From: a virus
Taxonomy: Duplodnaviria > Heunggongvirae > Uroviricota > Caudoviricetes
Strand: one strand, 5' to 3'
Virus record (IMG/VR): IMGVR_UViG_3300042922_000270
DNA: 64,000 nt
Part shown: positions 35,651-53,902 of the stretch, in pieces
Position numbering within the stretch: the first letter of the stretch is position 1
How the letters are laid out: each line of letters starts with the position of its first letter
Translations under genes and position numbers: made by a program
Notes under the pieces: generated by a model
The model's database searches: none
Told to the model about the DNA's origin: nothing
The model's input: the letters and a program-made list of their open reading frames with translations, nothing else

Positions 35651-35672
35651 AGGACCCCTACATGGGGTCCTT
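35651..35672 (-). terminator. rho-independent terminator
   Basis: AGGACCCC-ATGTA-GGGGTCCT then TTTTATTATG on the minus strand, directly after the 35658..36011 gene. Confidence 0.7.
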
Positions 35673-38364: not shown

Positions 38365-38591
38365 TTAGTAAAGAAGAGTTCTATCTCTTCTCTCCCAAAG
38401 TAATCGGCCTCATAGTCGTTATAGTCCTTATCAAACTTTAGAAAGTACTCTAGGCCTTGACGACAGCCAAGGTCTAGATGCTCAACCTCATAGATTTTGC
38501 CTATGTGGGTGCCCTTCCAGTCGTCTCTTCCAGACCTGGGGCCATCAGATAGAACTATAACCAGATCACCAGGTTTAATGTTATTCGTCAT
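38361..38591 (-). CDS. small paralog-family protein
   Basis: IKPGDLVIVLSD ... EEIELFFTK. Confidence 0.6.
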   Translation of the reverse strand: MTNNIKPGDLVIVLSDGPRSGRDDWKGTHIGKIYEVEHLDLGCRQGLEYFLKFDKDYNDYEADYFGREEIELFFTK

Positions 38592-39804
38592 ACTTGAGGT
38601 TAAACTTAGGGCTGATAACCTTGAAGCTTACGAAGCCAGCGTTTAGATCACCCAGATCAAAATCGAACTTAGGCTCGACTAGTCTGTAGACATCACCTTC
38701 ACGCTCAGTCTTCTTGTTATGAACCGACTTACCTTCGGCCATAGCCACAAGCTCGTCCACTGTGTGATTGAGAACAAAGTCTCTATCGATGATAGGAACC
38801 ATGTTAAGGCCTAGAGCTCTAACAAGCTTCTCAGTTTCTTCAAGACTATAATAGGTAAGGCTATCCGGATCGAATGCCTGAAAGACGAATAGATCCTTCT
38901 TCTTAAAGTCATACTTGTTACCCTGAATACCGGGACCACACATCTCACCCTGAATAACCAGATTGGTTCCAAAAGGAGTGCAGAGTGACCTCATCTTAGT
39001 TTCCAGGTCCAGCTCAAGGGCTAGCTCCCAGAAGGTAGGATCAACTCCAGCATCAATGTCCACAAGAGCTAGCAGCTCGTTGAAGAACTTCTTACGAACA
39101 ATACCAGTCCACTTAGGATTGTACTTGTCCATAAAGATAGTCCACTTGTACTCAGCCATCTTAATCTTCTTACGAAGGTTAAACTTAGTACAGACCTTGG
39201 ACCACCAATCATCACCAGGACGCGCTAGCTCTAGGTTACGAGAAGCAATACCGAACTTACCATCTTTGAGGTAGGCAGTGAAGCTGGAACCGTCCATCTT
39301 CTCAGCCCTATAGAATCTATGACCTCTGTACTTCTCCAGGAGCTTCTCCAAGATCTGTACACGAGTCTCGTCAGTCTTATAGATGAACGAGGGGAAGGGC
39401 ATACCAGACTTCTTCCGGAAGACACCAGCCAACTTAGGCTGACCCTTCTGAGGCTTCTGGTAGGGCTCCCACTTCTTGATACCGATGACATCAGTCACGT
39501 CAGTACCCTCAGGGCAGCCTTGCATGTTTTTAGGTAGAATAGTTACAGGGAAGCAGATACCCTGAGAGATCTGACCACGGAGCTTAATAGTCTGGACTCT
39601 GAACTTACGCTGACGCATAAACTCAAACTCAGGCTTCTCCGGTAGGAGAGAATCGATCTCAACGTAAACACACTTATCACCAGGTTTAAACTCGTCAAGT
39701 TTTACAACTACGTTCCAACCAAGTACCCTAGCTCTCTGAATAGCATCAGCGCCCTCAATGGGCTGAATATCTTTGATAGTCTGAATAGAGGCTAGTTTTC
39801 TCAT
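38581..39804 (-). CDS. RNA ligase (ATP-dependent, Rnl-family)
   Basis: AEKMDGSSFTAY contains the nucleotidyltransferase motif I (K.DG) in an Rnl-like context; 407 aa. Confidence 0.65.
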   Translation of the reverse strand: MRKLASIQTIKDIQPIEGADAIQRARVLGWNVVVKLDEFKPGDKCVYVEIDSLLPEKPEFEFMRQRKFRVQTIKLRGQISQGICFPVTILPKNMQGCPEGTDVTDVIGIKKWEPYQKPQKGQPKLAGVFRKKSGMPFPSFIYKTDETRVQILEKLLEKYRGHRFYRAEKMDGSSFTAYLKDGKFGIASRNLELARPGDDWWSKVCTKFNLRKKIKMAEYKWTIFMDKYNPKWTGIVRKKFFNELLALVDIDAGVDPTFWELALELDLETKMRSLCTPFGTNLVIQGEMCGPGIQGNKYDFKKKDLFVFQAFDPDSLTYYSLEETEKLVRALGLNMVPIIDRDFVLNHTVDELVAMAEGKSVHNKKTEREGDVYRLVEPKFDFDLGDLNAGFVSFKVISPKFNLKYDE

Positions 39805-40067
39805 TTAGTAAATACCAATTCCAAATCATCTGGGTGTACCAGTCTAGTATTATCCGAACGTCCAGGGTATGCACCCAGTGTAATATACACATGGTCTTCC
39901 CAGAGAGTAGAGCCAGTTGGATACAGATATTCGAACACAGCCCCTATATCTGCTTCTGTTGGAGCATAAGAAGTTGCTTTTCTGTATCTGCAATTATCTA
40001 GACGGGTTAGTATAACCAAGTCACCACTAGAGAAGTTCTTCGAGGCTCTCACGAATAGCTGCCTCAA
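39801..40067 (-). CDS. small paralog-family protein
   Basis: FSSGDLVILTRL ... DDLELVFTK. Confidence 0.6.
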   Translation of the reverse strand: MRQLFVRASKNFSSGDLVILTRLDNCRYRKATSYAPTEADIGAVFEYLYPTGSTLWEDHVYITLGAYPGRSDNTRLVHPDDLELVFTK

Positions 40068-40353
40068 CTTCTAGAGTGTCGATGTAATAATCCTCGTTTG
40101 CATCAAGGTAACTCAACGCAGTCATACCAAAGTTATCTTCGAGTTTAGGGTTAGCACCCTGCTGTTTGAGATAAGCATAGACAGTAATGTCAGTACTTAG
40201 GGCAGCTAGTACTAGAGGTGTTGCTCCATCACTATCAGTACAGTTAATATCTGCACCAAGAGTTAGAGCTTCGATAACATCTTCTATATTGTTCTCTGAG
40301 GCCGCTTTTAGCAGCATAGCGTTATACGCTTCTTGAAGGATTTGTTGATTCAT
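40027..40353 (-). CDS. ankyrin-repeat protein (short)
   Basis: DGATPLVLAALSTD ... GMTALSYL ; 2-3 ANK repeats. Confidence 0.65.
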   Translation of the reverse strand: MNQQILQEAYNAMLLKAASENNIEDVIEALTLGADINCTDSDGATPLVLAALSTDITVYAYLKQQGANPKLEDNFGMTALSYLDANEDYYIDTLEVEAAIRESLEELL

Positions 40354-40377
40354 AGTTTTAAGGCTTCGGGGGCTTAA

Positions 40378-40393
40378 GCCCCCTCAGCTCGTA
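40378..40393. terminator. palindromic GC hairpin
   Basis: GGGGGC-TTAA-GCCCCC between the 40404..40964 gene and the ankyrin gene. Confidence 0.4.
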
Positions 40394-40403
40394 TCTTTCT
40401 TTG

Positions 40404-40964
40404 TTAGATTAGCACGTTGGGCTCAAGGTTCTCGATCTGCTCAGCTGCTCGCTTAGCGTGCTCGAAAGCCTTGGAGGCGATCTGGCTCACCTTCTGGGTG
40501 GGGTCAATCTTAAACCCTTCGTGTAGCGCAACTGACTCGGGGTTGAACCCGATGAGACAGTTGATAGGAGTGATACCCTTGGCGAGGAAAAGGTCGCCGT
40601 TGATCCCGTAGTGGGCCAGGTAATCCGTATTCGCCCATTCCTTGAGTGAGCCAAAGAAGCGGTGAGGCTCCTGAGACAACTTAGGGAAGTAGTACTTGGG
40701 ATTGTCCTTATCGTTGGACTGCTTCTCACCAATGAATCGGTCTTCACCGATACGCCACTGATGGAACCCGCAAGCTTCGAAAGCGATGACAGAAGCGTAG
40801 TCAATGTTCTCCAGCTTCACGTAATCCGTGTTGATGGCTAGATTGACATGCTTGGGAATGATGCGCTCACCATCCTCACCGTCCACGAAGACCAAAAGCG
40901 AAGAGCGACCCTCTTTAAAGTCGATACGCTTCTTTACTCGGCCGGTGTACATCTTCTTGTTCAT
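40404..40964 (-). CDS. hypothetical protein (GC-rich island)
   Basis: 186 aa ORF with clearly elevated GC. Confidence 0.45.
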   Translation of the reverse strand: MNKKMYTGRVKKRIDFKEGRSSLLVFVDGEDGERIIPKHVNLAINTDYVKLENIDYASVIAFEACGFHQWRIGEDRFIGEKQSNDKDNPKYYFPKLSQEPHRFFGSLKEWANTDYLAHYGINGDLFLAKGITPINCLIGFNPESVALHEGFKIDPTQKVSQIASKAFEHAKRAAEQIENLEPNVLI

Positions 40965-41006
40965 CTGGGAGTTCCCCCTAATTCTTAAAATAACAAGACT
41001 AGGTAT

Positions 41007-41354
41007 CTAGTCCTTCAGGAATATTCTCGCTATCTCAGATATAAGTTTGGGGGCTTCAGTCATTAAACCTCCGGTAGACAACCATTTGATTAAACAAACG
41101 TACTTAGGCAACCTGTGGTGCTCTAAGTCTTGGATAATGGTTGCTACGACAGGTACCTCCAGTAACTCATTAGTTTTATGGTTACAATAGACCTTCCTAT
41201 TTTGGCCTGCGTACACCCCAATCTCTTTAGCAAGGATATCCTTCTCTTTAGTGGTCCAAGGTTTGCCTGGATCTTTATGGAGTTGGGCTACCGCTCTGCT
41301 GAAGTACAGGGAGTAATTAGGAAGGCTATCTGGAACTTGTAGTTCATCAATCAT
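41007..41354 (-). CDS. hypothetical protein
   Basis: 115 aa ORF. Confidence 0.45.
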   Translation of the reverse strand: MIDELQVPDSLPNYSLYFSRAVAQLHKDPGKPWTTKEKDILAKEIGVYAGQNRKVYCNHKTNELLEVPVVATIIQDLEHHRLPKYVCLIKWLSTGGLMTEAPKLISEIARIFLKD

Positions 41355-41491
41355 GTAGTATTAAGTAATTCTCCGGTTAAACAGACATAACAGTGACCAT
41401 GTAGGGTCTGCTGTCTGTTAGGTTGGATGCACACGTAACACATACAAGAATGACTAGAGGGAGGCTATAACGGCTTCCCTGAGATTAGTTG

Positions 41492-42250
41492 TTAAGCGAC
41501 GAGGCCTTTGGCACGAGCCTGCTTGAGCCAGCCGGGGAACTCGGTGAGGATCTTCCCATAGAGCTTAGGCCCATCGAGGGTCGGCTCCATGTGGAAGAAG
41601 TCAGCATTGTCCAGGAAGCGACCAGTCAGGTCGTCCAGCTTCTGGAGGAACTTGAACTGCTCGTTGCCGATGCCCACGAACTGGAAGAAGATGGCATGAG
41701 TCGAGGCGTCACGAAGAGCCTTCTCAGTCTCGGGGTGATCGAAGTTCTCACCATCGGTCAGGAAGAACACGAAGGTAGGAACCTCCGGAGTGCGCTCCTC
41801 GCTAGACACGTGGGTGACAGTCTCGGTCTTACCGAAGAAGCCCATGATGCCCTTAGCCTTCTCAGTGGTCGTGGTGATCTGCTGCTGCTTGTTGCCCATG
41901 TCAGCCACGATGGCGTTGATGGTGTAAGCAAACATGGTACCACCACTGGCACGGATGTTCTTGTTGATCCAGCCATCCGAGTTGGAGACGGACATGGTAC
42001 CAACCTTACCATGGTTGATGGTGTAGACGTCGATCTGCTGATCCGGATCCCAATGGGCCGACAAGGCGAGCAGACGGTCAGCAACGTTCTGGACCTGGCC
42101 AGACGAATACTCACCACCCATGCTACCGGAGTCGTCCAGGACAACCACAACGTTCGCTCTCAGAGTGTCGAGGTTCTTCTTCTCCAAGGTCAGCTTGACT
42201 TCCTTCTGGAGGGTCAGCTGGTCTTCCTTCTTGAGAGAAAGCATAGTCAT
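41492..42250 (-). CDS. vWA-domain protein (TerY-like)
   Basis: VVVVLDDSGSMGG MIDAS motif; about 250 aa like TerY/TerF vWA proteins; GC-rich. Confidence 0.65.
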   Translation of the reverse strand: MTMLSLKKEDQLTLQKEVKLTLEKKNLDTLRANVVVVLDDSGSMGGEYSSGQVQNVADRLLALSAHWDPDQQIDVYTINHGKVGTMSVSNSDGWINKNIRASGGTMFAYTINAIVADMGNKQQQITTTTEKAKGIMGFFGKTETVTHVSSEERTPEVPTFVFFLTDGENFDHPETEKALRDASTHAIFFQFVGIGNEQFKFLQKLDDLTGRFLDNADFFHMEPTLDGPKLYGKILTEFPGWLKQARAKGLVA

Positions 42251-42258
42251 GTAGATTA

Positions 42259-43527
42259 CTACTCCTTTTGACTTCCGAAGAAGTTATTACCAGACATAAG
42301 CTGGGTAAGCATTAGCATCTCTGAAAGGTCAGACTTACCTTCACCCTTGCCCATGAACATCATCATAGCCATAGGGTTCTTGGAGAAGTCCATAGTAGTA
42401 TTGCCGCCACCCATGAACTGAGACAACATCATCATCTCAAGTGGATCGGACTTTCCTTCGCCCATCATGCCAAACATCATGAGCTGGTTAAGGTTAGCGT
42501 TGTTATCGCCACCAAAATTCATCATAGAGACGACCTTAGTAAATAGCTTCATACCAAACATGTTGGAGCTAGGTACTAGAGTCTCTTCTTTACTGTTACG
42601 AGGATTGATACCTACAATGTTACCATTCTTCTTGATATCAGTTACAAATAGATACAGATCAGAACCACCATTACCACCACTGTTGTTTAGGATTAGATCA
42701 CCCTTCTTAACGTCAGTAGCCTGGACAGGCATATTGTATAGAAAGTCACCACCCATAGCCATCCCAGCGGGTACACGAGTAAGCTCTGAACCATTAAACG
42801 CAGCATACTCTTGATTACCTGCTAGAGCTACAGCTACGCCTGCAGCAGTGAGGCTAACTTCATTAGAAGTGTTCTTACCAAAGGTGACACCCAGAAGCTT
42901 CTTAAAGTTCATATTGTTCTTGCTTTCTTCCTTGGGCGCTTCAGCCCCAATAGTAGTCTTGTCTGTACCATTAAGAGTTGTATTAGCCGCTAGCTTAGTA
43001 CCGGTAGATTCAACTTTCCACTTACCATCTTCACCCTTAACAATACGTTTGGGGTCAGTTGGGTTTGCTCTGAGACCAAGCCAACCGACATGGTCATCTT
43101 TCTCAACAATAGTTAGTTCTAGGTCGTCAGGGTCGTCGGCACATTGTCCCCGAATATTATAACAATAAGCTGTGCCATCGCCGTCTTCAGCAGTGACTGC
43201 CCAAGGCCAGTCTTTTAGCTCATCACTGATACCAGTTACTGTAACAAAGGTGCCGTCATCATCACCAAGAACATAGGTATCACCCACACTCCAGTCAAAC
43301 TTAGGTTTAGGAATCTTGGCTGTAGGCCCGACTACACGCATAGGATCTAACATTGAATCGTAACGACCCTGTCTTCCATCCTCCATGTGCCACTCTTCGT
43401 AGGTCCCATGAATATCTTTCATTAGATATGGATATTGATCATCGTCGTCATCGTATTCTACGTATCTCAGAACGGTACCATCGACGGTCTCGTAGTACCG
43501 CCCTAGCATCCAGTTAATCTTACTCAT
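42259..43527 (-). CDS. hypothetical protein with Met/Gly-rich C-terminal repeats
   Basis: 422 aa; C-terminus has repeated GEGKSD(L/P)xEMxML segments. Confidence 0.45.
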   Translation of the reverse strand: MSKINWMLGRYYETVDGTVLRYVEYDDDDDQYPYLMKDIHGTYEEWHMEDGRQGRYDSMLDPMRVVGPTAKIPKPKFDWSVGDTYVLGDDDGTFVTVTGISDELKDWPWAVTAEDGDGTAYCYNIRGQCADDPDDLELTIVEKDDHVGWLGLRANPTDPKRIVKGEDGKWKVESTGTKLAANTTLNGTDKTTIGAEAPKEESKNNMNFKKLLGVTFGKNTSNEVSLTAAGVAVALAGNQEYAAFNGSELTRVPAGMAMGGDFLYNMPVQATDVKKGDLILNNSGGNGGSDLYLFVTDIKKNGNIVGINPRNSKEETLVPSSNMFGMKLFTKVVSMMNFGGDNNANLNQLMMFGMMGEGKSDPLEMMMLSQFMGGGNTTMDFSKNPMAMMMFMGKGEGKSDLSEMLMLTQLMSGNNFFGSQKE

Positions 43528-43764
43528 CTGTTACCTTTCCAGGTGTATTTAATATAAAGGGCGATTGAAGGGTACTGCCCCCTCTTCTCCGGCTTCACAG
43601 GCCGGCGCATCACTAAAATGCTTCAAACGCCACAAACTTACTTCAGTGCCGAAAAGATCGACAACCCGAGCCCAATGAGGCCCATACCAATACCAGCCAT
43701 AACCAGATGAGCGTAGGTAGCTGGATCCATGATACCCATACCGATACACACACCGGCAAAGATA

Positions 43765-44334
43765 CTAATCGTCTGACCTACTGAACGAAGGAATAGCACT
43801 TACTGCCCTCAACTTACTTAGATAGTCCAGGCCTTTAGCTCTGGTGTCCTTAATACTGTCTAGTTGGTCTTGTGTCAGGTTAAGATACTCTAGCCCACAA
43901 GCCCACTCATAAATTCTTCGATTGATCTCAGGAACCTTAACCATACGCTCAGGATACCCTAGACTCTTAGTTCTGTACTCTAGGGTGTATCTATTGTCGT
44001 AGGGTAGTCTTTCATCTCTGAGCCTACGAGAACCTAGCTCATAGAAACTAAGCTGGGGATCTAGACCTTTGGTGAACTTCTCAAGGTTCACAAACTTCAT
44101 CACACTGTCATCAAACAGGATATAGGTCTGAACATAGTCCTGCGCTACGTGACCTGAGCAACAGTACTGTGTCTCATAACCTTTACGGTTAAGTTCGAAG
44201 ATGGTGGGTACCATCATGTCATCTATCTCAATGAGGCCGTTCTCACAGGAAGGACACTCTTTAGGGTCAAATCTCGGATCGTGATAATACGGATGAGCTG
44301 CCTCACACTTAAGGCATACACGAAATGTTGACAT
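43765..44334 (-). CDS. Zn-ribbon hypothetical protein
   Basis: CLKC ... CPSC N-terminal zinc ribbon; 189 aa. Confidence 0.45.
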   Translation of the reverse strand: MSTFRVCLKCEAAHPYYHDPRFDPKECPSCENGLIEIDDMMVPTIFELNRKGYETQYCCSGHVAQDYVQTYILFDDSVMKFVNLEKFTKGLDPQLSFYELGSRRLRDERLPYDNRYTLEYRTKSLGYPERMVKVPEINRRIYEWACGLEYLNLTQDQLDSIKDTRAKGLDYLSKLRAVSAIPSFSRSDD

Positions 44335-44344
44335 AGGCTACCTT

Positions 44345-44575
44345 CTATATTGTGTAAATGACTTCTACGTTCTTCCAGTAAAACTCACATTCGTTACTAA
44401 CGCCCTGATAGTATTCAGGGGTATCCACTAGAATAAACCAATCAGTAACATCAAAGTCAGCACTAGACACCCAGGTGTCCACCACCCACATGACTCTAAA
44501 GATCTGACCATAGTACTTAGACTTTGTATCTTTGATGATGACCATATCATCAATATGTATAGGTTGTGGTTTCAT
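44345..44575 (-). CDS. small paralog-family protein
   Basis: HIDDMVIIKDT ... KNVEVIYTI. Confidence 0.55.
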   Translation of the reverse strand: MKPQPIHIDDMVIIKDTKSKYYGQIFRVMWVVDTWVSSADFDVTDWFILVDTPEYYQGVSNECEFYWKNVEVIYTI

Positions 44576-44579
44576 AAAG

Positions 44580-44652
44580 TCGGCCCTACGGGATTCGAAC
44601 CCGTGCTAAGAGTTTTAGAGACTCCTGTGCTATCCGCTAACACCAAAGGCCG
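44580..44652 (-). tRNA. tRNA with anticodon CUA (predicted amber-suppressor tRNA)
   Basis: Hand-folded cloverleaf: acceptor CGGCCUU/AGGGCCG, D-stem GUGU/GCAC, anticodon stem GGAGU/ACUCU, loop C-U-CUA-A-A, T-arm ACGGG-UUCGAAU-CCCGU, discriminator A; no encoded CCA. Confidence 0.6.
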
Positions 44653-44667
44653 ACAAACTTGTTTACG

Positions 44668-44916
44668 TTAGACTAGCCATATCTCCTCCAGATACCTATC
44701 TGTTTGTTCAGCATCAGCCATAAGCTCTGCTGCGTCTTTAAATAGGGTAATCCTGAGGACTAGGCCTCTAGTCTTGTTTAGGTTGGAGATGATGCCGTAC
44801 AGACCGCTCTTACTGATCTGTCCAGGTCTAAGCCTGTCACCCTTAATGTATTGATACGGCTGTATCCTAAGGGTACGGTCATCGGAGTTATCTATAATAT
44901 GCTGAGCAAGGGACAT
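44668..44916 (-). CDS. hypothetical protein
   Basis: 82 aa ORF. Confidence 0.4.
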   Translation of the reverse strand: MSLAQHIIDNSDDRTLRIQPYQYIKGDRLRPGQISKSGLYGIISNLNKTRGLVLRITLFKDAAELMADAEQTDRYLEEIWLV

Positions 44917-45001
44917 AGAGAACGTAGCTCTATGAATCTTCTTGTCTGAGACAATACAATAGACAATGTCACTGCTCTTACATGAACAGCTGATCTTGGG
45001 T

Positions 45002-45487
45002 TTAGGGTCCTAATGCATCATTTACCTCTTTCTGTAAATCATAGTTAAACTTAGTACTGTCGCTGAGAAGCTCTATCCCATCGAGGTTACGGGCGTAACT
45101 ATTAATGTAGTTTTGTTTACGTTGTTCCCACTGCTCGTCTGTGTAGTGAGAAAGTTGCTCTCTAGGGACAGCCAGTTGGTTTAGACAATAAGTTACACCT
45201 TCACGACATCTCTCAAGTTCTTTGAGCCTGATATTCTCGAAGATGGCCTTCTGATCCACCACACCGCTATCTAGTAGAGGTTTAGCTACCCTAAAGAGAC
45301 TGGTGTGCCCAAAGCTCTCACAGAACTCTTCTTTAATGGGCTTATCAATATTATCGTATGTTTCCCAGGTATGTCTACAACCTTGGACCATATTAGCTAT
45401 AAGCTCAGTGGTATCCTGAATAATCTTCTTGAGCTTATCAATCTCATCCTGTTGTTTCTGGATGTATGCTGCTTCAGCGTACGTCAT
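45002..45487 (-). CDS. hypothetical protein
   Basis: 161 aa ORF. Confidence 0.45.
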   Translation of the reverse strand: MTYAEAAYIQKQQDEIDKLKKIIQDTTELIANMVQGCRHTWETYDNIDKPIKEEFCESFGHTSLFRVAKPLLDSGVVDQKAIFENIRLKELERCREGVTYCLNQLAVPREQLSHYTDEQWEQRKQNYINSYARNLDGIELLSDSTKFNYDLQKEVNDALGP

Positions 45488-46190
45488 TAAAGTTCTCGTA
45501 CCACTCTACTATGGCCTCGGCGGCCCGTCTTGGGGGAAGTATGTCTTTGATACCCAGATTCCTAAGCCCAGGAGCATGATTAAGATCGCAAGCAAGTTTA
45601 ACGCCAGTAGCGCTGTCTTCAATATAATCAATGGCAAACACAGGCAGATAAGAATAGTGAGGTACTCTAGAAACATAGTTATCAATTATTTCTACCTCTG
45701 CACCAGAAGCATTAGTCATCCAGTTCTCAGGATTGATTATCTTGAGCATGAATGCATGCTTACCTATTTGTACGTATTTATAACTAGTAGCCACTGGTCC
45801 TGTGTTGATAAACATACTAGCCAGTTGATTACGAGGGTGACTAGATCCATCCCACTGCCCACCGGGTCTAGTAGGAGAAACTATATCTCTAACTTGTTGA
45901 GGAGTATAGAGTTCTTTGCCTTGGGCAGCATGTCTCCACTCTTCTGTATAGACTACCTGGCTTCTCATAGGGTACTTAGCATAAAGGGTGGCCATGGTTC
46001 CGTGGGGAACTACGGTCTCACCGAGAACATCCCTTAGTATCCTAAACTGGTCAGACTTATGAGGATAGCTAGTTTCAGGGCTGTTACCTGCTATACGCTT
46101 AAACTCAAAGTCATAATTTGTACAGTGCCTGGACTCTAACCAAATATCGTAATAGTCTATATAGTCAGTAGTTAACTTTACTTTGGTCAC
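45474..46190 (-). CDS. hypothetical protein
   Basis: 238 aa ORF. Confidence 0.45.
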   Translation of the reverse strand: MTKVKLTTDYIDYYDIWLESRHCTNYDFEFKRIAGNSPETSYPHKSDQFRILRDVLGETVVPHGTMATLYAKYPMRSQVVYTEEWRHAAQGKELYTPQQVRDIVSPTRPGGQWDGSSHPRNQLASMFINTGPVATSYKYVQIGKHAFMLKIINPENWMTNASGAEVEIIDNYVSRVPHYSYLPVFAIDYIEDSATGVKLACDLNHAPGLRNLGIKDILPPRRAAEAIVEWYENFNDVR

Positions 46191-46417
46191 TTGGAGAACA
46201 TAACCTCTAAATCTTTAAGGGGATACCAGAAGCCTTTGTTCAACTCTAGTGGGAATATATAAGCATAGTCTTCTTCAAGAACAGCATGATGCTTTCTAGT
46301 GGCCACATACTTAACTTCACAGATGGTCCCTAGCCTAAAGATAGCTAGTAACTGATAGAAGTCTGGATGATGCTGTTCGGGAATGTTAGCCAGCCTAACA
46401 AGATCACCGGGACCCAT
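46187..46417 (-). CDS. small paralog-family protein
   Basis: MGPGDLVRLANI ... KDLEVMFSK. Confidence 0.6.
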   Translation of the reverse strand: MGPGDLVRLANIPEQHHPDFYQLLAIFRLGTICEVKYVATRKHHAVLEEDYAYIFPLELNKGFWYPLKDLEVMFSK

Positions 46418-46674
46418 TATGTTGTGTACACCGGTTGAACATCATCAAAGCCAAACAACCAGTAACGGTCAGTGACTCTGGTACCATTCAGGTCGCAAGT
46501 GATGTCCTTCTGAGGGAATTCTACAACTAGTACACCCGCTGATCTGTATTCGTCATCGCCATTGACTATACGACCAATACGTCCCACCAGCTTAGTTGGA
46601 CTAGACACTAGCTTGAGTTTACCTACCTGTGTAGGAGTTCTTCTGATCATAACCTGATCATTTTCATTATACAT
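46417..46674 (-). CDS. small paralog-family protein
   Basis: NENDQVMIRRT ... DDVQPVYTT. Confidence 0.5.
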   Translation of the reverse strand: MYNENDQVMIRRTPTQVGKLKLVSSPTKLVGRIGRIVNGDDEYRSAGVLVVEFPQKDITCDLNGTRVTDRYWLFGFDDVQPVYTT

Positions 46675-46702
46675 TGTTATACCTATAGAGAAATATAATA
46701 AG

Positions 46703-46774
<72 letters not shown>

Positions 46775-46786
46775 CAAGAGAAGCCC

Positions 46787-48301
46787 CTACTGGGGCTTCT
46801 TAGTTAGAACAAACTCTTCAGCCTGCTCTACTGTTGAGATTAGACCATCTACAACTAGCTGCTTCATTTCCTTCATGACAGCACCTAGCTCAACACCAGG
46901 CTTCATGCCTAGCATCTTAGCTACTTGGTTACCATCAATAGGAGTCTTCACAGCCTCACCAATCAACTTGGACGTATCCAACTGACTGATCATCACTTCT
47001 AGTTTAGCAAAGCCTTCTACGTCTCTGTAGGCCTCACTATGTGCAAGCCGATCAGAAACCATAAGTTGGATATGCTCTTTCCAGAGGTGGCCCATCTTGT
47101 TGACGAACCTTCTTACATTGCGTATGTTCCACTCGCCATGGGCATAGTTAACATGTTCGCCAACCATCATGGTGATGTCTGTGATGTCTTCACCAGAGAA
47201 CTTGAGTCTCCTCAAGATCTTCTCGGTCATGTCTGCTCCCCAGTAGTCATGCTTCAAGAAGGACTTACCCTCACGAAGAGCCCATGAGCCACAAGTCGGA
47301 CACTCTATCTTGTCTACCTTATCGTACACATCACCAGGAAGCTTAGACTTGTAGTCACACCTGTCTTCTATGCACTTGTATCTGATTTGGAACGAAGTCG
47401 GTTTAGCGACGTCGTGAAGGAGGCAAGCGAGAACGACTCTATAGCTAGCACCGAGATCAACAGCATTTTCCACTGCCAGGAGGGTATGCTCCCAAAGAGG
47501 CAGATGATGATGGTAATTATCTTGATCATAGCCAAGCTGCGATACAAGTTCAGGTATAATGTGAGTGATAACTCCATCTTCCATCATCTCCCTAAAGGCA
47601 AGCGCCGCAGTACGAGTTCCAGCAATCTGCACGAGTTCGTCATGGATACGTTCCCATGAGATCTCTTTGAGATAGGGAGCCCATTGTCTGATGGCTGGAC
47701 GGATGTTATCATCAAAGACAAAGCCAAGTCTGTGTTTGAAACGATACGCCCGAAGGATCCTGAGGGGATCGTCCGAGAACGAGGTTGATGCATCGATAGG
47801 GGTTCTGAGTAGTCCCACCGAGCTTGGTCTGTCCAAACAGGAGTACCCTTCCAGACTAGTACTGTCACTGATATTCACCTCGGCGTAGTAATTGTAAGTG
47901 GGGTCCCAGCACAGGTAAGCTGCAATGGCATTACAAGTGAAGTCTCTACGCACTAGGTCATCACTGAGATTCTTGCTGAAGTTGACCTTGGGTCTACGAT
48001 TGCCACGTTCGTAGCTTTCGTTGGCCCTGAAGGTAGTGATCTCTAGTTGTTCACCTTTGTAGATACAATGTACCGTACCGTAGTTACCACCGTTCTTTTC
48101 AACAATGGAAGCACCTAGCTTCTTCATGATTTTGGTGATAACCTCAGGCTCTGCGTCGGTAGCAAAGTCGAAGTCTTTCGGTTCACGATTAAGAATCATA
48201 TCTCTGACACAGCCACCTACCAACCACAGTTCATGGTTGCCGAAGGCCTTAACGAGTGGAAACAGGGTCTCCAACTTATCGTGGAATAGCTGGGTGCGCA
48301 T
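46787..48301 (-). CDS. cca: tRNA nucleotidyltransferase (CCA-adding enzyme) with HD domain
   Basis: LWLVGGCVRDMILNREPKDFDFATDA (GG.VRD ... D.D head domain) and a LLHDVAKP HD motif. Confidence 0.8.
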   Translation of the reverse strand: MRTQLFHDKLETLFPLVKAFGNHELWLVGGCVRDMILNREPKDFDFATDAEPEVITKIMKKLGASIVEKNGGNYGTVHCIYKGEQLEITTFRANESYERGNRRPKVNFSKNLSDDLVRRDFTCNAIAAYLCWDPTYNYYAEVNISDSTSLEGYSCLDRPSSVGLLRTPIDASTSFSDDPLRILRAYRFKHRLGFVFDDNIRPAIRQWAPYLKEISWERIHDELVQIAGTRTAALAFREMMEDGVITHIIPELVSQLGYDQDNYHHHLPLWEHTLLAVENAVDLGASYRVVLACLLHDVAKPTSFQIRYKCIEDRCDYKSKLPGDVYDKVDKIECPTCGSWALREGKSFLKHDYWGADMTEKILRRLKFSGEDITDITMMVGEHVNYAHGEWNIRNVRRFVNKMGHLWKEHIQLMVSDRLAHSEAYRDVEGFAKLEVMISQLDTSKLIGEAVKTPIDGNQVAKMLGMKPGVELGAVMKEMKQLVVDGLISTVEQAEEFVLTKKPQ

Positions 48302-48311
48302 GAGTACCTTC

Positions 48312-48581
48312 CTATACCGTAAATATTATATCTATATCTTCTTCTCTGACGCCCCGTGTGGTTCTATCGTTTAGCTTTACCGAATACCAGAATTCCATTC
48401 CTGGATACTGGTGCGCATAGTCTTCACCTGCTGTGGGTACAACTTGTATGATCTCAGCTATTTTATTAGCCCATACCTCATAGAAGCCATCACCAGGACG
48501 AGCTAAGACCTTATCAGTCCATAAGAAGACATCTTTGACTACTACTAAATCTCCGACTGAGTATTTTGGTGTATTTTCCAT
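48312..48581 (-). CDS. small paralog-family protein
   Basis: YSVGDLVVVKDV ... EDIDIIFTV. Confidence 0.6.
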   Translation of the reverse strand: MENTPKYSVGDLVVVKDVFLWTDKVLARPGDGFYEVWANKIAEIIQVVPTAGEDYAHQYPGMEFWYSVKLNDRTTRGVREEDIDIIFTV

Positions 48582-48583
48582 AG

Positions 48584-48656
48584 CGGCCCCACCAGGACTC
48601 GAACCTGGGACAAAGGTTTAGGAAACCTCCGTTATATCCATCTTAACTATGAGGCC
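48584..48656 (-). tRNA. tRNA-Arg (CCU), tentative anticodon
   Basis: Acceptor GGCCUCA/UGGGGCC, D-stem GUUA/UAAC, anticodon stem GAGGU/ACCUU with loop UUCCUAA, T-loop UUCGAGU. Confidence 0.6.
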
Positions 48657-48665
48657 ATTGTGGGG

Positions 48666-49004
48666 CTAGTGCCCCGTGTTGTGGTGAGGGTCAGGACAGC
48701 GACAACGCACACCCTTATCCTCAGTCTTAGGCTTCTTTGACTCTTCGTAAGCAGCATTGGCACTAGCCAAAGTCTTAGGGTCAATCTTAGCCAAAGCCTT
48801 CTGCTTCTCGTGATCGATGGCAATGTAGAACATGATCTCATCTCTCACAAGAGAATCAATCATTAGAGGCTTGAGGGCCTCCATAATCACAGAGCCATTG
48901 ATACGACTCTCAATCTCAGGACGCTTGGTTTCAGCAAAGGCTTTGGCCTCGGCAACAACCTTAGGGTCTAGAGTCTCAAGTAGCTGGTCCAATGTTTTGA
49001 GCAT
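48666..49004 (-). CDS. hypothetical protein
   Basis: Trimmed to the internal ATG (MLKTLDQLLE...) to minimise overlap with the NADAR gene. Confidence 0.4.
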   Translation of the reverse strand: MLKTLDQLLETLDPKVVAEAKAFAETKRPEIESRINGSVIMEALKPLMIDSLVRDEIMFYIAIDHEKQKALAKIDPKTLASANAAYEESKKPKTEDKGVRCRCPDPHHNTGH

Positions 49005-49470
49005 TGCGTAGTTCCTCTCGAACTTGCATGAGGGCCTTGCCAAGAAGGTTACGCCCAGCTTTGTCACACTTAGGCAAGCGACCACAGTAGCAGTCACCCC
49101 AGATATTATCGTGATGGTAGTTACCCTCAATAAGGATAGCATCACCGGTACCCAAGAGAATCTCTCTTAGGTCAGCATGTTGACTGAACTTAGCTCTTAC
49201 AAGCTCAACCATAAGGTCGTACTTGATATCTTCCCAATCAGGCCTGAACGACTTAATGATCCCTCGGGGACCACCCATCCTCTTAGCCTTACCAGGTGTC
49301 TCAGCCAACATGATTTGAGCAAACTCTTTAGGGTCCGAAGATTTAAGAGCTTGGTACGGGTGCTCAAGGGTCTTACACTTCATGCCCCTGTAAGTAAACT
49401 CTCTTTCAAAGAAGTTACTAAAGCATTCGTACTTACCCGTGAACCTGTCTATTACTGCTACTGTAGCCAT
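48976..49470 (-). CDS. NADAR (YbiA-like, DUF1768) domain protein
   Basis: YECFSNFFEREFTYRGMKCKTLEHPYQALK matches the NADAR signature (F.SNF ... E..YQA.K); start trimmed to MATVAVIDRF. Confidence 0.7.
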   Translation of the reverse strand: MATVAVIDRFTGKYECFSNFFEREFTYRGMKCKTLEHPYQALKSSDPKEFAQIMLAETPGKAKRMGGPRGIIKSFRPDWEDIKYDLMVELVRAKFSQHADLREILLGTGDAILIEGNYHHDNIWGDCYCGRLPKCDKAGRNLLGKALMQVREELRNAQNIGPAT

Positions 49471-49493
49471 TATTACCTCTATTATTATATTAC

Positions 49494-49569
49494 TGGCCCT
49501 GGAGGGATTCGAACCCTCAACCTCTCCCGGCATAAACCAGTGAGTGCTCTACCATTGAGCTACAGAACC
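49494..49569 (-). tRNA. tRNA, anticodon arm not resolvable by hand (possibly non-canonical loop)
   Basis: Good acceptor (GGUUCUG/CAGGGCC), D-arm GCUC-AAUGGUA-GAGC and T-arm GAGGG-UUCGAAU-CCCUC; the interior CUCACUGGUUUAUGCCGGGAGAGG does not give a standard 5-bp stem with 7-nt loop. Confidence 0.55.
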
Positions 49570-49864
49570 AAGTGAGGCTGAATACACAGCCTGGCGCACA
49601 TCCCTAGGTCTATCAGGAAACCACCTGTAAAGCGTTGGTCCAGGATTTAATTACCTGTTAGCTATTACGTCTGCTTCTCTTCTAGCCTTATGTTTGATGC
49701 TTTACCTCTGATCTTTGATCTCTTATCTTTCCTCGGCAACAAATCCCCCGAAAAGGTGGAGGAATACGTTAGATTGATAAATCCAAAATCAATGTAATGC
49801 TTCATAAGGTTGAAACGGACCTTCCCGAGTTCGAGATGTTCGTGCACCCAGCCTCAAAAGTTGT

Positions 49865-50542
49865 TTAGTTGAACTTTAGCAGTTCATCCGGAATCTCGAT
49901 CTGAGTCGAGGTGTTAGCCTCAGACAGAACGAAGTCCAGAGTGGTCTCCAGCTCAACCTGCTCGTCAGTATAGTTCTTCACTACCTCACGAAGGTTGAGG
50001 GGATCGAGCAGAGCAGGCTGATACATGCTCTTGAGGTTCTTAGCCACAAGCTCGAGCTGTTCCTGCTTCACCTGTTGACCATTGCTGGCCAAGGCATTCT
50101 GCTGGTTCTCGATCTGCTGGTTCACCGCAAACTCAGCATTCTCGTATTCACGAGTAGCGAGACTGAGGCGCTGCTCCAGCTTGGTAAGTAGGGTTCTGCG
50201 GTTACCACGAACCTTGCAGTCCTTCAGACCAAGCGACTGACGGAGATACACAGCCTCAGCCAGAGTCATGACGGTACCACGAACGGTAACGTTAGTCTCC
50301 AAGTTAGCCTTCTGAATGGCGAACTTGAGCTGTGCACGACGAGCAATGAGGTCATTGACCTGTTGGAACTCAGCTTGGATGTCCTTAGCCTGCTCGTCAG
50401 CAGTCTTGTACTTCTTGGTGACAGGGGACTTTTGATCTCCGATGGTCAGTCCGATGAGCTGGAGGTTGGCAATGGCCTTCTCGATACGGTCATCGAGGCT
50501 CTTGGCTACGGTCATTGCGCGGGTGATTGATACTTTTGACAT
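49865..50542 (-). CDS. coiled-coil hypothetical protein
   Basis: 225 aa; Gln/Glu/Leu-rich heptad-like sequence; GC-rich. Confidence 0.45.
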   Translation of the reverse strand: MSKVSITRAMTVAKSLDDRIEKAIANLQLIGLTIGDQKSPVTKKYKTADEQAKDIQAEFQQVNDLIARRAQLKFAIQKANLETNVTVRGTVMTLAEAVYLRQSLGLKDCKVRGNRRTLLTKLEQRLSLATREYENAEFAVNQQIENQQNALASNGQQVKQEQLELVAKNLKSMYQPALLDPLNLREVVKNYTDEQVELETTLDFVLSEANTSTQIEIPDELLKFN

Positions 50543-50594
50543 TGTTCTCTTCTTTTAGGTTTTAATAGACGTATACTGTCTCTGAATAGTTAAG

Positions 50595-50667
50595 TGGGCT
50601 AAGAGGGATTCGAACCCCCGACTCTCTGCTTAAGAGGCAGATACTCTACCAACTGAGTTATTAGCCC
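50595..50667 (-). tRNA. tRNA-Lys (CUU)
   Basis: Acceptor GGGCUAA/UUAGCCC, D-stem ACUC/GAGU, anticodon stem UCUGC/GCAGA with loop CUCUUAA, T-loop UUCGAAU. Confidence 0.7.
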
Positions 50668-50676
50668 TAACCTAGA

Positions 50677-51213
50677 CTAAATGATTAGTCCAAGCGCTTC
50701 AATACCATCAGCATGACCTTTGGCTGCATCATTGTATGCATCCCCAGCTAGGTGCTTGAACAACTTAGCATGGTAGGTCTCATCCTTCAGGATATTGATA
50801 AATGTTTCTCTGATGTCCCACGGAGCGGTTACATCATCAGCAATTACTTTGATACGCTCTAGACGCATCTCTTCAGCATGGGCAGCAATGCCACATGCTT
50901 CTTGGTAGGATAGCTCTGAGTTACCCAGAACAGCCTCCCAGTAACGATCAGAGCTAGCGCTCTCCGTAGGAACCGGAATCTGCCTGACAATCAGAAGATC
51001 CTTAATCCAGTCAGCATGAACATCTTCTTCATACATGACCCGCTCGATGGATTTCTGGTCGATGTAGTTAGGAGCATGTGCCAGAATGTACTGCTTGATG
51101 CGGTCAGAAGCTGACAACTCTCCAGAGTACTGCTGGGTGAGCCAGTGACGGAGAGCTGAGTTATCGCTCTTAACGCCATCCCACCACTGCTGTGAAGTCT
51201 TCTTTGGAATCAT
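50677..51213 (-). CDS. hypothetical protein, possible ferritin-like diiron fold
   Basis: Three E..H spacings (EDVH, HAEEMRLE, ETYH) in a predicted helical protein; weak. Confidence 0.3.
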   Translation of the reverse strand: MIPKKTSQQWWDGVKSDNSALRHWLTQQYSGELSASDRIKQYILAHAPNYIDQKSIERVMYEEDVHADWIKDLLIVRQIPVPTESASSDRYWEAVLGNSELSYQEACGIAAHAEEMRLERIKVIADDVTAPWDIRETFINILKDETYHAKLFKHLAGDAYNDAAKGHADGIEALGLII

Positions 51214-51446
51214 TGTGTGAACATTACCTCTACTTCTGAAGGCTTGAGGACCATACCGGCATCATCACCAGTAACAATCCAATACTTCCAGTCCTCACCG
51301 GACTCACTATCTGTCTCGTAAACTCTAATATCCTTGACTTCAAAGATCTTACCTACATAACTTGCTTTGAAGTAGGCCAGTTCTTCGTTATCAAACCAGG
51401 GATCACTAACATCTTTGACTACAACTAGGTCACCCTGGTTTATCAT
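51210..51446 (-). CDS. small paralog-family protein
   Basis: MINQGDLVVVKDV ... SEVEVMFTQ. Confidence 0.6.
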   Translation of the reverse strand: MINQGDLVVVKDVSDPWFDNEELAYFKASYVGKIFEVKDIRVYETDSESGEDWKYWIVTGDDAGMVLKPSEVEVMFTQ

Positions 51447-51727
51447 TACTTCTTCTTTTTGGTCTTAGGGGCAGGTTTCTCTTCTGCCTTCTTAGAGGTG
51501 ATCTCGACGTAAGCCCCATCTACGAGCTTCTCGACCTTGATGGTCTGATTACCGAAGATGGTTCTAATGTTCTCCTTAAAGAAGCCATTCTCGTGAAGGA
51601 GAACCGTAGCTTCAGAACCAGCAGTGATGTGGTCCAGAGCAAACACTTCTACTTCCTGATTGAGACTGTCATCCAGGGGTTTGAAGTCCTTATCAAAGAA
51701 CTTCTTAGTTACTCTGAACTGTTCCAC
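51446..51727 (-). CDS. hypothetical protein with Lys-rich tail
   Basis: 93 aa, ends KPAPKTKKKK. Confidence 0.4.
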   Translation of the reverse strand: MEQFRVTKKFFDKDFKPLDDSLNQEVEVFALDHITAGSEATVLLHENGFFKENIRTIFGNQTIKVEKLVDGAYVEITSKKAEEKPAPKTKKKK

Positions 51728-52075
51728 TTACATCACCCATCCTATCGATAAGACAAACCTAACACCTTCGGTCACCAACGTAACCTCATGCTCATGGATG
51801 TCTGGCCTGAACACTTGCATGAAGGGCAAGTCTACTATCTTGGGTCCATAGCACTCAAAGTGGCCACCACGCTTGGCTTTCCACAAGAAGATATTACACC
51901 TATAGTGTTTCTCTCCTGGTTGGACTGTATCGACGTGCTTCTTAACAAAGCTACCGATAGGCCACTTAAGAAGGTACACATCTATAAACTTAATCTTACC
52001 TAGAGGCTTGCCCCTAAAGTACAGGAGCTTCTTGAGGTAGCCACTATTCTGTCTACCCGCTTCCCATTTAATCAT
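51728..52075 (-). CDS. hypothetical protein
   Basis: 115 aa ORF. Confidence 0.4.
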   Translation of the reverse strand: MIKWEAGRQNSGYLKKLLYFRGKPLGKIKFIDVYLLKWPIGSFVKKHVDTVQPGEKHYRCNIFLWKAKRGGHFECYGPKIVDLPFMQVFRPDIHEHEVTLVTEGVRFVLSIGWVM

Positions 52076-52089
52076 ACAACTCTTTCTAT

Positions 52090-52191
52090 GAGGGACAGTG
52101 GGATTCGAACCACACTACAGCCTAGGCCGGTACCAGCCCTTGCTTACGTTTATTCACAACGCATACGGACACCATTCCGTAGAGGTCCCTC
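52090..52191 (-). ncRNA. atypical ~100-nt tRNA-like element (tRNA with large insertion, or pseudogene)
   Basis: Perfect 7-bp acceptor GAGGGAC/GUCCCUC and GGUUCGAAUCC T-loop box, but about 100 nt long with extra internal hairpins (ACGGA-AUGGUG-UCCGU; UGCGUU-GUGAAUA-AACGUA; GGCUGG-UA-CCGGCC) and a poorly paired T-stem. Confidence 0.45.
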
Positions 52192-52197
52192 GGGAAC

Positions 52198-52488
52198 TTA
52201 CTTGACCCAGAACATCCACTTAGGGACTTTGGGCTTACTGAGTTCATGTGCTCTGACATTGTCCTGCAACTTAGTCACCAGGTCCCAGTCAGTATCGGAT
52301 CTTGCTAGAAGAGCATCAACAGGCTTCTGTAACTCGGTGTGAGTATCCTTCCACTCTTTGAGGGCCTTAACACCGAACTTACGATCGATGAAGGACTTCA
52401 CTGTGAAGAAGAGCATCGTGAAGAGACTTCCAAAGAACAGGACCTCGAATAAGATCAGTAAGCATCTCAGTAGCATTACTAGAAACAT
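52198..52488 (-). CDS. small membrane protein
   Basis: 96 aa, N-terminal transmembrane helices. Confidence 0.4.
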   Translation of the reverse strand: MFLVMLLRCLLILFEVLFFGSLFTMLFFTVKSFIDRKFGVKALKEWKDTHTELQKPVDALLARSDTDWDLVTKLQDNVRAHELSKPKVPKWMFWVK

Positions 52489-52489
52489 C

Positions 52490-52816
52490 TTACTTTCTCC
52501 TCTGGAAGATCAGCCAGTCGTTGTCTTTGAGACCCTTGAATTCCCAGCCGTCGTTACCATAACGTTCTATGGTAACCCACCACTGACCTTCATCAGTAGT
52601 ACTGGATTGCACCCAGGAGGTCTCGAAGGTGGCCCCAAGCTGCACATGAGAATTACCTGTGGTAGCTCTATGAACAGATGTCGTGTCCTTAAGATGAACA
52701 ACCAATATGGTTGAAAACACCATAGCAAGGACCAGTACTGAGATCATCAGGATCTTGTTCTTGGTGTAGGTGTTAAGATTGGAGATCCCCGAAAGGATCT
52801 CCTTTAGCTTACCCAA
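52490..52816 (-). CDS. membrane-anchored protein, possible NfeD-like partner of the SPFH protein
   Basis: 108 aa; N-terminal TM helix plus beta-rich C-terminus; immediately downstream of and co-oriented with the SPFH gene. Confidence 0.35.
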   Translation of the reverse strand: MGKLKEILSGISNLNTYTKNKILMISVLVLAMVFSTILVVHLKDTTSVHRATTGNSHVQLGATFETSWVQSSTTDEGQWWVTIERYGNDGWEFKGLKDNDWLIFQRRK

Positions 52817-53737
52817 CTACTCAGCCTTGGTAGCGCCCACGGTCTTACCGAGAGCACCAGCATCGATAATCGAACCACTGGGGACGATGATCAAATTGGC
52901 AGCGTTGATGATGGCGTTGGCCGTGATCTTGGCCTTCTCCAACTCGGTGTACTGAGTGGGCGACAGACCAATGGCCGAACGAGCGTTGGCCTCACCCTTG
53001 GCACGGATGAACTTGGCATCGGCTTCAGCCTTGGCCTCGATCTTGACCTTCTCAGCAGCCATCTTGGACTTCTCCAATTCCTGCTTGGCCGACAAGGTCT
53101 CCTGCTCGATCTGAGCCTTACGCTCCACCGCAGTCTTGATGGCCTCGGGTAAGTTGATGTCCGAGATGGCCACAGTTTCGACAATAGTGAAGTCGTCACC
53201 GATGCCGTCGATCTTGACGTCCTGGTTCTTAAGGCCGGCCTGCAAGATGCGGTTCATCTCGGCAGCAGCCTTAGCACCACGCGACTGATACAGGTCGATC
53301 ACGCCGTACTTCGAGAACGAGTAGCCAGCGACCTGCTGAATCACAGGGATCCAACGAGTCTGAATCAGGCCGCTGTCGCCGCCGAAGGCCTTGCGGTACT
53401 TCTTGAACAACTCAGCGGGGCGGGTGCTCGACTCACCGAAATCGGTCCTGTACTGGACTCGAACGTCAACGGTCAGCTCTTGACCTTCACGAGTGTTGAC
53501 TCGGAAGTTGTCGAGGTTGATGTTGTCGACGACACCGGCAGGGTACTCGTAGACATTCTTGAAGAAACCGACGAGGTGCATGCCAGGAGGCAGGGGCTTC
53601 TCATCGATGTGACCACTGACAGTATCAGTCACCACACCCACAGAACCAGGTTCGATGGAGGCACAGCCCTGAACAACAGGCATCACCGCCAAGGCCAAAA
53701 CAGCCAAAGCACTCACTAGAAGTCGCTTGAGATTCAC
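52817..53737 (-). CDS. SPFH/band-7 (stomatin/prohibitin/HflK/C-like) domain lipoprotein
   Basis: SPFH-like core (NTREGQELTVDVRVQYR ... IQTRWIPVIQQVAGYSF ... coiled-coil AKQELEKSKMAAEKVK) with N-terminal signal/lipobox LAVMPVVQGC; start reassigned to the GTG at 53737 preceded by AAAGGA; GC-rich. Confidence 0.6.
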   Translation of the reverse strand: MNLKRLLVSALAVLALAVMPVVQGCASIEPGSVGVVTDTVSGHIDEKPLPPGMHLVGFFKNVYEYPAGVVDNINLDNFRVNTREGQELTVDVRVQYRTDFGESSTRPAELFKKYRKAFGGDSGLIQTRWIPVIQQVAGYSFSKYGVIDLYQSRGAKAAAEMNRILQAGLKNQDVKIDGIGDDFTIVETVAISDINLPEAIKTAVERKAQIEQETLSAKQELEKSKMAAEKVKIEAKAEADAKFIRAKGEANARSAIGLSPTQYTELEKAKITANAIINAANLIIVPSGSIIDAGALGKTVGATKAE

Positions 53738-53902
53738 TAAGGATTCCTTTCTTGTACCAGCGTAACTAAAAGCTGGATCAGGCAACTGATAAGAGCCAGT
53801 GTAAGCACGGCTCCACCAATCAGTACCAGGTAGGGAGTACACGGATCTGACGCTAAGAATGTCCCAATAGAGGGGCTCTCGAAGAATGCAGCATTCATAG
53901 GA

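Follow-up and report, generated by a model that had tools for sequence, protein, structure and literature searches.

An uncultured jumbo phage that terminates genes with TAG carries an amber-suppressor-type tRNA gene in its tRNA array

A suppressor tRNA is usually the first clue that a phage uses an alternative genetic code, and recoding that is overlooked ruins both gene calling and annotation. A 64,000-nucleotide stretch of DNA from an uncultured tailed phage (hereafter the window, meaning the whole stretch that was analysed) carries a 73-nucleotide tRNA gene with the anticodon CUA on its minus strand (44580-44652). Does this gene indicate that TAG has acquired a new meaning in the phage? 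Our analysis shows that it is another case of a known and recurrent class of phage suppressor tRNAs, and that it is not evidence of a changed genetic code.

The identity of the gene was established in three ways. ARAGORN calls a tRNA with anticodon CTA on the minus strand at 44579-44652. In a search of the whole window, Rfam model RF00005 is matched end to end (model positions 1-71) by 44580-44652 on the same strand, with a score of 54.6 bits (E = 5.5e-9) against a gathering score of 29 bits. The minimum-energy fold obtained with ViennaRNA is a cloverleaf with a seven-nucleotide loop C-U-C-U-A-A-A, the z-score of its energy being just -2.06. A sequence-only reading of this DNA had described a canonical cloverleaf of 73 nucleotides (stems of 7, 4, 5 and 5 base pairs, U33, A37 and the T loop UUCGAAU), and each of these elements is borne out by the sequence and by the Rfam alignment. 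The placement of CUA at positions 34-36 also holds, as ARAGORN, Rfam and the fold concur on it. That reading gave no strand for the gene, which lies on the minus strand like every gene of the window.

The acceptor stem comprises seven base pairs from C1-G72 to U7-A66, including U6.G67, and the four-base-pair D stem is accompanied by G18G19. The anticodon stem is formed by five base pairs (GGAGU/ACUCU) enclosing the loop C32 U33 C34 U35 A36 A37 A38, on which all three methods agree. A variable loop of four nucleotides, a five-base-pair T stem with the loop UUCGAAU, and the discriminator A73 complete the molecule. Position 14 is U, where A is usual, and no 3′ CCA is encoded, the trailer past A73 being CTTTAT. 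No alternative register with a sense anticodon was found for this gene; ARAGORN, one of the programs that the sequence-only reading had proposed running, returned CTA and no shifted sense anticodon. With 54.6 bits the gene is mid-range for the tRNA array in which it lies (47.8-75 bits in Rfam). By its anticodon, U33 and the purine at position 37 it is a gene of the amber-suppressor type, suppression itself being predicted. This identity is further upheld by two independent tRNA finders and by an identical anticodon arm in 33 other phage CUA tRNAs (see below).

The label 'tRNA-Pyl' attached to the gene by ARAGORN, which that program prints for any CTA anticodon, would make it a pyrrolysine tRNA. 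However, tRNA-Pyl has a six-base-pair anticodon stem, a three-nucleotide variable loop and a tiny D loop, and is devoid of G18G19 and of the T-psi-C consensus. The window tRNA is canonical wherever tRNA-Pyl is peculiar, with its five-base-pair anticodon stem, four-nucleotide variable loop, G18G19 and canonical T loop. Moreover, no PylS/PylBCD-like gene was found among the ORFs scanned with Pfam. The structure contradicts a pyrrolysine tRNA, an identity that we regard as exceedingly improbable.

Proteins identical to those of the window are on record from a single JGI contig of 208,594 bp, and the phage is therefore a jumbo phage of ~209 kb. The readable DNA amounts to ~74 kb, consisting of the window and ~10 kb of flanks from two Logan contigs of run SRR35179700, with the structural and lysis genes located in the other ~135 kb. 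No nucleotide match to the window was obtained by megablast among 50,697 phage records, the exact sequence of the CUA tRNA is absent from IMG/VR, and an exact 44-mer from the contig end is absent from 185,579 species genomes. The GC content of the window is 45%. All substantial ORFs are on the minus strand. Greedy selection of ORFs with a minimum length of 50 amino acids yields 125, which under the standard code account for 92.6% of the window. Pfam matches identify genes for replication (a family A DNA polymerase, a sliding clamp and a SNF2 helicase) and for nucleotide metabolism (ThyA, DHFR and Tmk). The DNA polymerase is at most 26% identical to that of any GenBank phage, these being Microcystis phages.

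The CUA tRNA belongs to an array of tRNA genes scattered among small ORFs (44579-63962, minus strand), of which 14 are called by ARAGORN and 11 score above the Rfam threshold. Logan contig L002 adds ten further tRNAs upstream of the window, bringing the array to at least 24. None of the 11 Rfam-supported genes in the window encodes CCA, and a CCA-adding enzyme of the phage or of the host is therefore needed. A phage gene for such an enzyme (tRNA nucleotidyltransferase; 46787-48301, minus strand; 504 amino acids, terminated by TAG; Pfam PolyA_pol, PolyA_pol_RNAbd and HD) is located 2 kb upstream of the CUA tRNA. For relatives of this protein from IMG/VR and JGI metagenomes, identity does not exceed 32-34% over alignments of substantial length, and 46% is reached over a 45-residue fragment only.

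Directly upstream of the CUA tRNA is an ORF of 82 amino acids with no family match and no PHROG match (44668-44916, minus strand). Its stop codon lies 15 nucleotides before the tRNA, suggesting that the two are probably co-transcribed. On the other side, a TAG-terminated ORF of 76 amino acids (44345-44575, minus strand) starts four nucleotides past the tRNA. No promoter or terminator signal above chance was detected in the interval 42000-49000. Given this tight packing and the lack of such signals nearby, the tRNA is presumably cut from a polycistronic transcript.

Searches with the 17-nucleotide anticodon arm GGAGUCUCUAAAACUCY retrieved 41 IMG/VR contigs, in 33 of which the arm belongs to a CUA tRNA. 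The bodies of these tRNAs are 61-77% identical to that of the window tRNA. When 23 distinct arm-sharing CUA tRNAs are aligned, compensatory double changes are seen at 15 of 21 stem pairs, whereas the invariance of the arm itself is there by construction, since the set was selected by the arm. The covariation in the other stems shows the arm-sharing CUA tRNAs to be working molecules that have been maintained. For the 3′ half of the window tRNA, neither 185,579 species genomes nor IMG/VR yielded an exact match.

Approximately ten of the arm-bearing loci look TAG-recoded, with GC contents of 0.25-0.40 and a coding coverage that rises from 0.48-0.70 under code 11 to 0.67-0.91 under code 15. These include crAss-like contigs as well as giant contigs (331 and 554 kb) with a GC content of 0.25. 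Local recoding is not shown by the other arm-bearing loci, among them all nine with a GC content of at least 0.41, contigs of 370 and 494 kb, and Cronobacter phage vB_CsaM_GAP32. The window, with a GC content of 0.45, sits with the carriers of the arm that show no local recoding.

The best BLAST matches in phage genomes are the CUA tRNAs of the crAss-like phages cr7_1 (Burzaovirus coli) and cr124_1, with 86% identity over positions 4-62 and 77% overall. These genes, and that of cr60_1, are annotated as tRNA-Gln and resemble the window tRNA in being phage-encoded, in the anticodon CUA, in an identical D stem, anticodon arm (GGAGU-CUCUAAA-ACUCU) and start of the variable loop, and in the discriminator A73. 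However, they carry U1-A72 in place of the C1-G72 of the window tRNA, and the T stems differ. The crAss-like loci are also recoded, their coverage increasing from ~0.5-0.6 under code 11 to ~0.83-0.89 under code 15 at a GC content of 0.36-0.37, in contrast to the window with 45% GC and TAG as a normal stop.

GAP32, an unrelated cultured jumbo phage (Mimasvirus) of 358,663 bp, carries within a tRNA cluster a CUA tRNA (annotated 'Sup-tRNA') with the same arm, G1-C72 and 74-79% identity to the window tRNA, and its deposited annotation gives no sign of recoding. In a 15-kb locus of GAP32, TAG ends none of 30 genes, as opposed to 16% in the window. Another match, at 81% identity, is the tRNA-Trp(CCA) of Bacillus phage Nate, whose arm is the same save for base 35. 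The window tRNA is thus of the same class as the suppressors of crAss-like and giant phages, yet it occurs in DNA of 45% GC in which TAG ends one in six genes, and a CUA tRNA alone is therefore no ground for a code-15 annotation.

Which amino acid might such a tRNA carry? A gapped search with the 5′ half found two IMG/VR tRNA-Gln(UUG) genes (3300037104_000892 and 3300009551_000014) in which acceptor positions 2-7 and the D arm (GGCCUUUGGUGU...AGCACA) are identical to those of the CUA tRNA, and one of the two adjoins a CUA tRNA. These genes differ from the window tRNA in their UUG anticodon, in U1-A72 and G73, and in their anticodon and T arms. A single change, C35 to U, converts the tRNA-Trp anticodon loop into that of the CUA tRNA. 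A Gln-like 5′ half combined with a Trp-like loop makes the body one of the Gln/Trp type.

The same loop occurs in E. coli su7/supU, a tRNA-Trp-derived amber suppressor charged mainly with glutamine, which has CUCUAAA and a U31-A39 closing pair, as here. The su7/supU loop is the tRNA-Trp loop CUCCAAA with C35 replaced by U. This suppressor is a cellular mutant allele with A1-U72 and G73, whereas the window tRNA is a phage gene. E. coli GlnRS recognises U35, G2-C71, G3-C70 and G10; amber suppressors derived from tRNA-Trp and tRNA-Gln are among its substrates. The CUA tRNA has G2-C71, G3-C70 and G10, with C-G as its 1-72 pair and A as its discriminator. Bacterial tRNA-Gln carries U1-A72 and G73 together with G2-C71, G3-C70 and G10, and the phage's own two tRNA-Gln genes likewise have U1-A72 and G73.

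The amino-acid signal from BLAST neighbours is mixed, as these are annotated Trp, Gln, Glu and Arg. Glutamine has been found to be inserted at the recoded TAG codons of phages (PMC9523058). Taking together the Gln/Trp-type body, the GlnRS determinants (U35 being the main one) and the use of glutamine in phage TAG recoding, glutamine is our best guess for the residue that would be inserted. Because the C1-G72/A73 end is unlike that of the phage's own tRNA-Gln genes, charging with glutamine is only putative.

The CUA tRNA could be a neutral or decaying by-product of array turnover, in which a duplicated tRNA-Gln-type gene drifted to CUA and is now poorly charged or expressed, with no selected function. 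Such an origin would fit the match of the 5′ half to phage tRNA-Gln(UUG) accompanied by loss of U1-A72 and G73, the presence of U14 in place of A14, the lack of a CUA tRNA at the syntenic position of the nearest relative, and abundant local TAG terminators that suggest no strong suppression. However, none of the four stems is broken and 54.6 bits is a mid-range score for the array, while the exact 17-nucleotide arm recurs in 33 CUA tRNAs with very different, covarying bodies, which argues for selection on suppressor function. We therefore consider a by-product without function quite unlikely.

The central question is whether TAG is recoded in the readable sequence. Stop codons of the 125 window ORFs are TAA in 71 cases, TGA in 34 and TAG in 20 (16%). 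The sequence-only reading had noted that UAG still terminates genes here, and indeed both the PRTase ORF (30606-31442) and ORF 35658-36011 end in TAG. The genes for a BCS1-like ATPase, an SPFH protein and the CCA-adding enzyme do so as well. The last of these encodes 504 amino acids where homologues have 493-510, so that the protein is full length at its TAG, which must be a true stop. Ordinary stop usage is also seen in the ~10 kb of flanks, and in relatives without the CUA tRNA, TAG makes up 19-26% of stops.

Coding coverage leads to the same reading. Genomes that use code 15 have a coding density of ~67-69% under code 11 and ~90% under code 15 (PMC11210395). In the window, code 11 gives a coverage of 0.91-0.93 and code 15 one of 0.94 (0.91 and 0.94, respectively, for two-strand ORF coverage), a pattern also seen in control loci without recoding. 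No coding gap of the window is filled by a TAG-containing ORF; gaps of at least 150 nucleotides hold tRNAs or ordinary alternative ORFs. No conserved gene interrupted by an in-frame TAG was found in the 64-kb window. The median distance to the next TAA or TGA past the stop is 11 codons for TAG, 12 for TAA and 9 for TGA, which is no difference, and back-up stops are not enriched after TAG genes relative to TAA or TGA genes.

Three pairs of same-frame neighbours that could have been read-through fusions look like separate genes: 341 + 108 amino acids at 52490-53842, 115 + 186 amino acids at 40404-41354, and 189 + 66 amino acids at 43549-44334. In the syntenic relative L016, the two members of the second pair occupy different frames. 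In the first, an open frame of 108 codons (52490-52816, minus strand), which encodes a transmembrane helix and a small domain, continues in frame past the TAG of the SPFH/Band-7 gene (52817-53842). This frame is absent from the Logan gene calls, and is most simply seen as a separate partner gene that would start at an internal ATG.

Six tests (stop usage, coverage, gap filling, same-frame neighbours, downstream stops and relatives) thus indicate that the readable third of the genome uses the standard code. The sequence-only reading had expected the tRNA to entail partial read-through, recoding or a countermeasure against the host. Its suppressor-type tRNA stands, whereas the readable sequence lends no support to recoding: 20 of 125 stops are TAG, nothing is gained under code 15, and TAG interrupts no conserved gene. 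The signs of recoding that it had named are likewise missing: TAG is not depleted as a terminator (20 of 125 window genes), no gene in the window needs read-through, and no release-factor gene is present among the scanned ORFs. A Pfam search for release factor or aminoacyl-tRNA synthetase domains was negative for window ORFs of at least 250 amino acids and for other scanned ORFs of at least 148 amino acids.

These results weigh on the proposal that the code switches in late genes, as in crAss-like and Lak phages, with a tRNA encoded in a standard-code early region decoding TAG, probably as glutamine, in structural and lysis genes elsewhere in the genome. Approximately 65% of the genome, including the late genes, is outside the readable ~74 kb. 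The anticodon arm is identical to, and the whole tRNA 77% identical to, the suppressors of clearly recoded crAss-like loci. Moreover, 52% of code-15 phages carry Sup-CUA (PMC11210395), recoding machinery has been placed in standard-code early regions (bioRxiv 10.1101/2021.08.26.457843), and recoding restricted to hallmark genes has been reported for jumbo phages (PMC13037316).

Against a late-gene switch stand the GC content of 45% and the undepleted TAG terminators, which are, if anything, enriched near the CUA tRNA. Recoded-looking loci among the 41 IMG/VR arm loci never exceed 0.40 GC (0 of 9 with GC of at least 0.41), the readable sequence holds no in-frame TAG candidate, the scanned ORFs include no RF2 or synthetase gene, and the nearest relative has no CUA tRNA at this position. 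With an intermediate GC content, TAG terminators that are not depleted and no accessory factors among the scanned ORFs, we view a late-gene switch as unlikely, although it is the chief rival reading. If the late genes do contain in-frame TAG codons, the phage would be a case in which recoding was not preceded by a depletion of TAG.

TAG stops are clustered around the CUA tRNA (40027-48841, minus strand), where they end 8 of 18 genes within 5 kb compared to 12 of 107 elsewhere. The clustering gives p = 0.0017 in a Fisher test and p = 0.02-0.04 in a scan-statistic permutation, figures to be read with the ±5 kb interval having been picked after inspection and the effect being modest. Of four orthologues of the clustered genes in relative L016, three have TGA or TAA as their stop. 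TAG might have a timed double meaning in this phage, serving as a stop early and, once the suppressor has built up, either as an amino acid codon in late hallmark or lysis genes, or as a point at which neighbouring TAG-ended early proteins are extended or shut down. We hold this to be rather doubtful. If true, it would represent recoding outside the known low-GC, TAG-depleted route, by a Gln-like body with an unusual C1-G72/A73 end.

Related phages, located through the CCA-adding enzyme, reveal how stable the locus is. Two of them, L016 and L017, have CCA enzymes 57% identical to that of the window and are syntenic from the CCA enzyme to an ankyrin gene. At the place of the CUA tRNA they carry tRNA-His and tRNA-Thr and no suppressor. 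In L022 (CCA enzyme 46% identical) there is a tRNA with the anticodon UCA (15384-15456, plus strand, Logan SRR20462228; Rfam 43.9 bits), which is of the opal-suppressor type with C33 instead of U33. TGA ends 17 of 57 genes in that region, and code 4 adds no coding density; coverage there is 0.74 under code 11 and 0.85 under code 15. A more distant relative, L012 (CCA enzyme 32% identical), carries an unrelated CUA tRNA. Taken together, the contents of these four loci indicate that stop-reading tRNAs are gained and lost by the arrays of this broad group, among genes that end in the cognate codon.

The explanation that we prefer, with a probability of roughly 55%, is that the CUA tRNA is a genuine and probably functional accessory amber suppressor, one of the array tRNAs of an uncultured phage of ~209 kb that uses the standard code wherever its genome is readable. 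The tRNA would be transcribed within long early or middle polycistronic transcripts, excised by host RNase P and 3′ nucleases, and given its CCA end by the phage or host CCA-adding enzyme. A host synthetase would then charge it, most plausibly with glutamine, given U35 and an acceptor segment (positions 2-7) and D arm like those of tRNA-Gln(UUG). Once charged, it may compete with release factor 1 at UAG and cause partial read-through. We envisage a sporadically acquired accessory of the array, and not an engine of code change. Candidate benefits include tolerance of amber mutations, minor protein forms with extended C termini, and a first step to recoding.

An accessory role is suggested by the use of TAG as a normal terminator, by the lack of any gene in view that depends on the tRNA, and by the presence of other tRNAs at its place in the closest relative. 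GAP32 offers a precedent. On the other side, the sequences that it matches best overall are the suppressors of crAss-like phages in which TAG is recoded. Surveys report a strong association of suppressor tRNAs with recoding (bioRxiv 10.1101/2021.08.26.457843), and a concentration of recoding in the hallmark-gene regions of jumbo phages (PMC13037316). As an accessory suppressor, the gene would add an environmental jumbo phage to the standard-code carriers of CUA tRNAs, a possible starting point of recoding.

The window also encodes an RNA-repair and tRNA-maturation set (24840-28837, 38581-39804 and 46787-48301, minus strand), comprising RlaP, a second RNA ligase of the PHA02142 type, the CCA-adding enzyme and a kinase-ligase fusion. 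The fusion is a protein of 747 amino acids with kinase, phosphoesterase and Rnl1-type ligase domains (Pnkp-Rnl1-type). A homologue of EF-Ts (56040-56909, minus strand; Pfam EF_TS, 5e-45) is at most ~40% identical to bacterial EF-Ts from many phyla and therefore gives no clue to the host. An 81-nucleotide match to tmRNA (54196-54276, minus strand) scores 56 bits in Rfam against a gathering score of 47, and is not called by ARAGORN. It consists of the tRNA-like domain only (an acceptor stem with G3.U70, a T arm and a short connecting hairpin). An mRNA-like tag region is missing, and the RNA may be a mini-tmRNA that accepts alanine or a decoy for SmpB.

The richness of the window in functions that maintain tRNAs and translation, namely the Pnkp-Rnl1-type fusion, the second RNA ligase, RlaP, the CCA enzyme, EF-Ts and the tmRNA-like RNA, would suit a CUA tRNA that serves as a weapon or in counter-defence. 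It might perturb UAG termination in the host or in a competitor phage, or act as a spare or decoy against tRNA-directed defences. However, a CUA tRNA is not known to be a target of any anticodon nuclease, and the phage's own genes would suffer equal read-through. A role of this kind seems to us very unlikely.

Several other features of the window were observed. A stress cluster of the Ter type (tellurite resistance; 30606-34854 and 41492-42250, minus strand) contains a ComF-like PRTase, a HAD hydrolase, TerC/DUF475, two TerD proteins and a vWA-TerF-like protein. A family of small proteins (75-108 amino acids), characterised by the motifs GDLV (N-terminal) and (D/E)LExVFT (C-terminal), is present in at least eight copies in the window (11229-11555, 19849-20370, 24632-26084, 39801-40067 and 60273-60557, minus strand) and in more copies in the flanks (L002 3530-3772 and L001 12587-12799). 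A profile search of 5.8 billion proteins, which recovered only six of the eight window copies, found no homologue of this family outside the phage.

The array itself includes three unusual members on the minus strand. A 'tRNA-Cys' (GCA; 58713-58797) of 85 nucleotides has a long variable arm and scores 55.8 bits in Rfam. A tRNA-like gene of 89 nucleotides (57956-58044) is called by ARAGORN only, which assigns it no determined anticodon. The tRNA-Leu(GAG) at 63889-63962 has a short variable arm.
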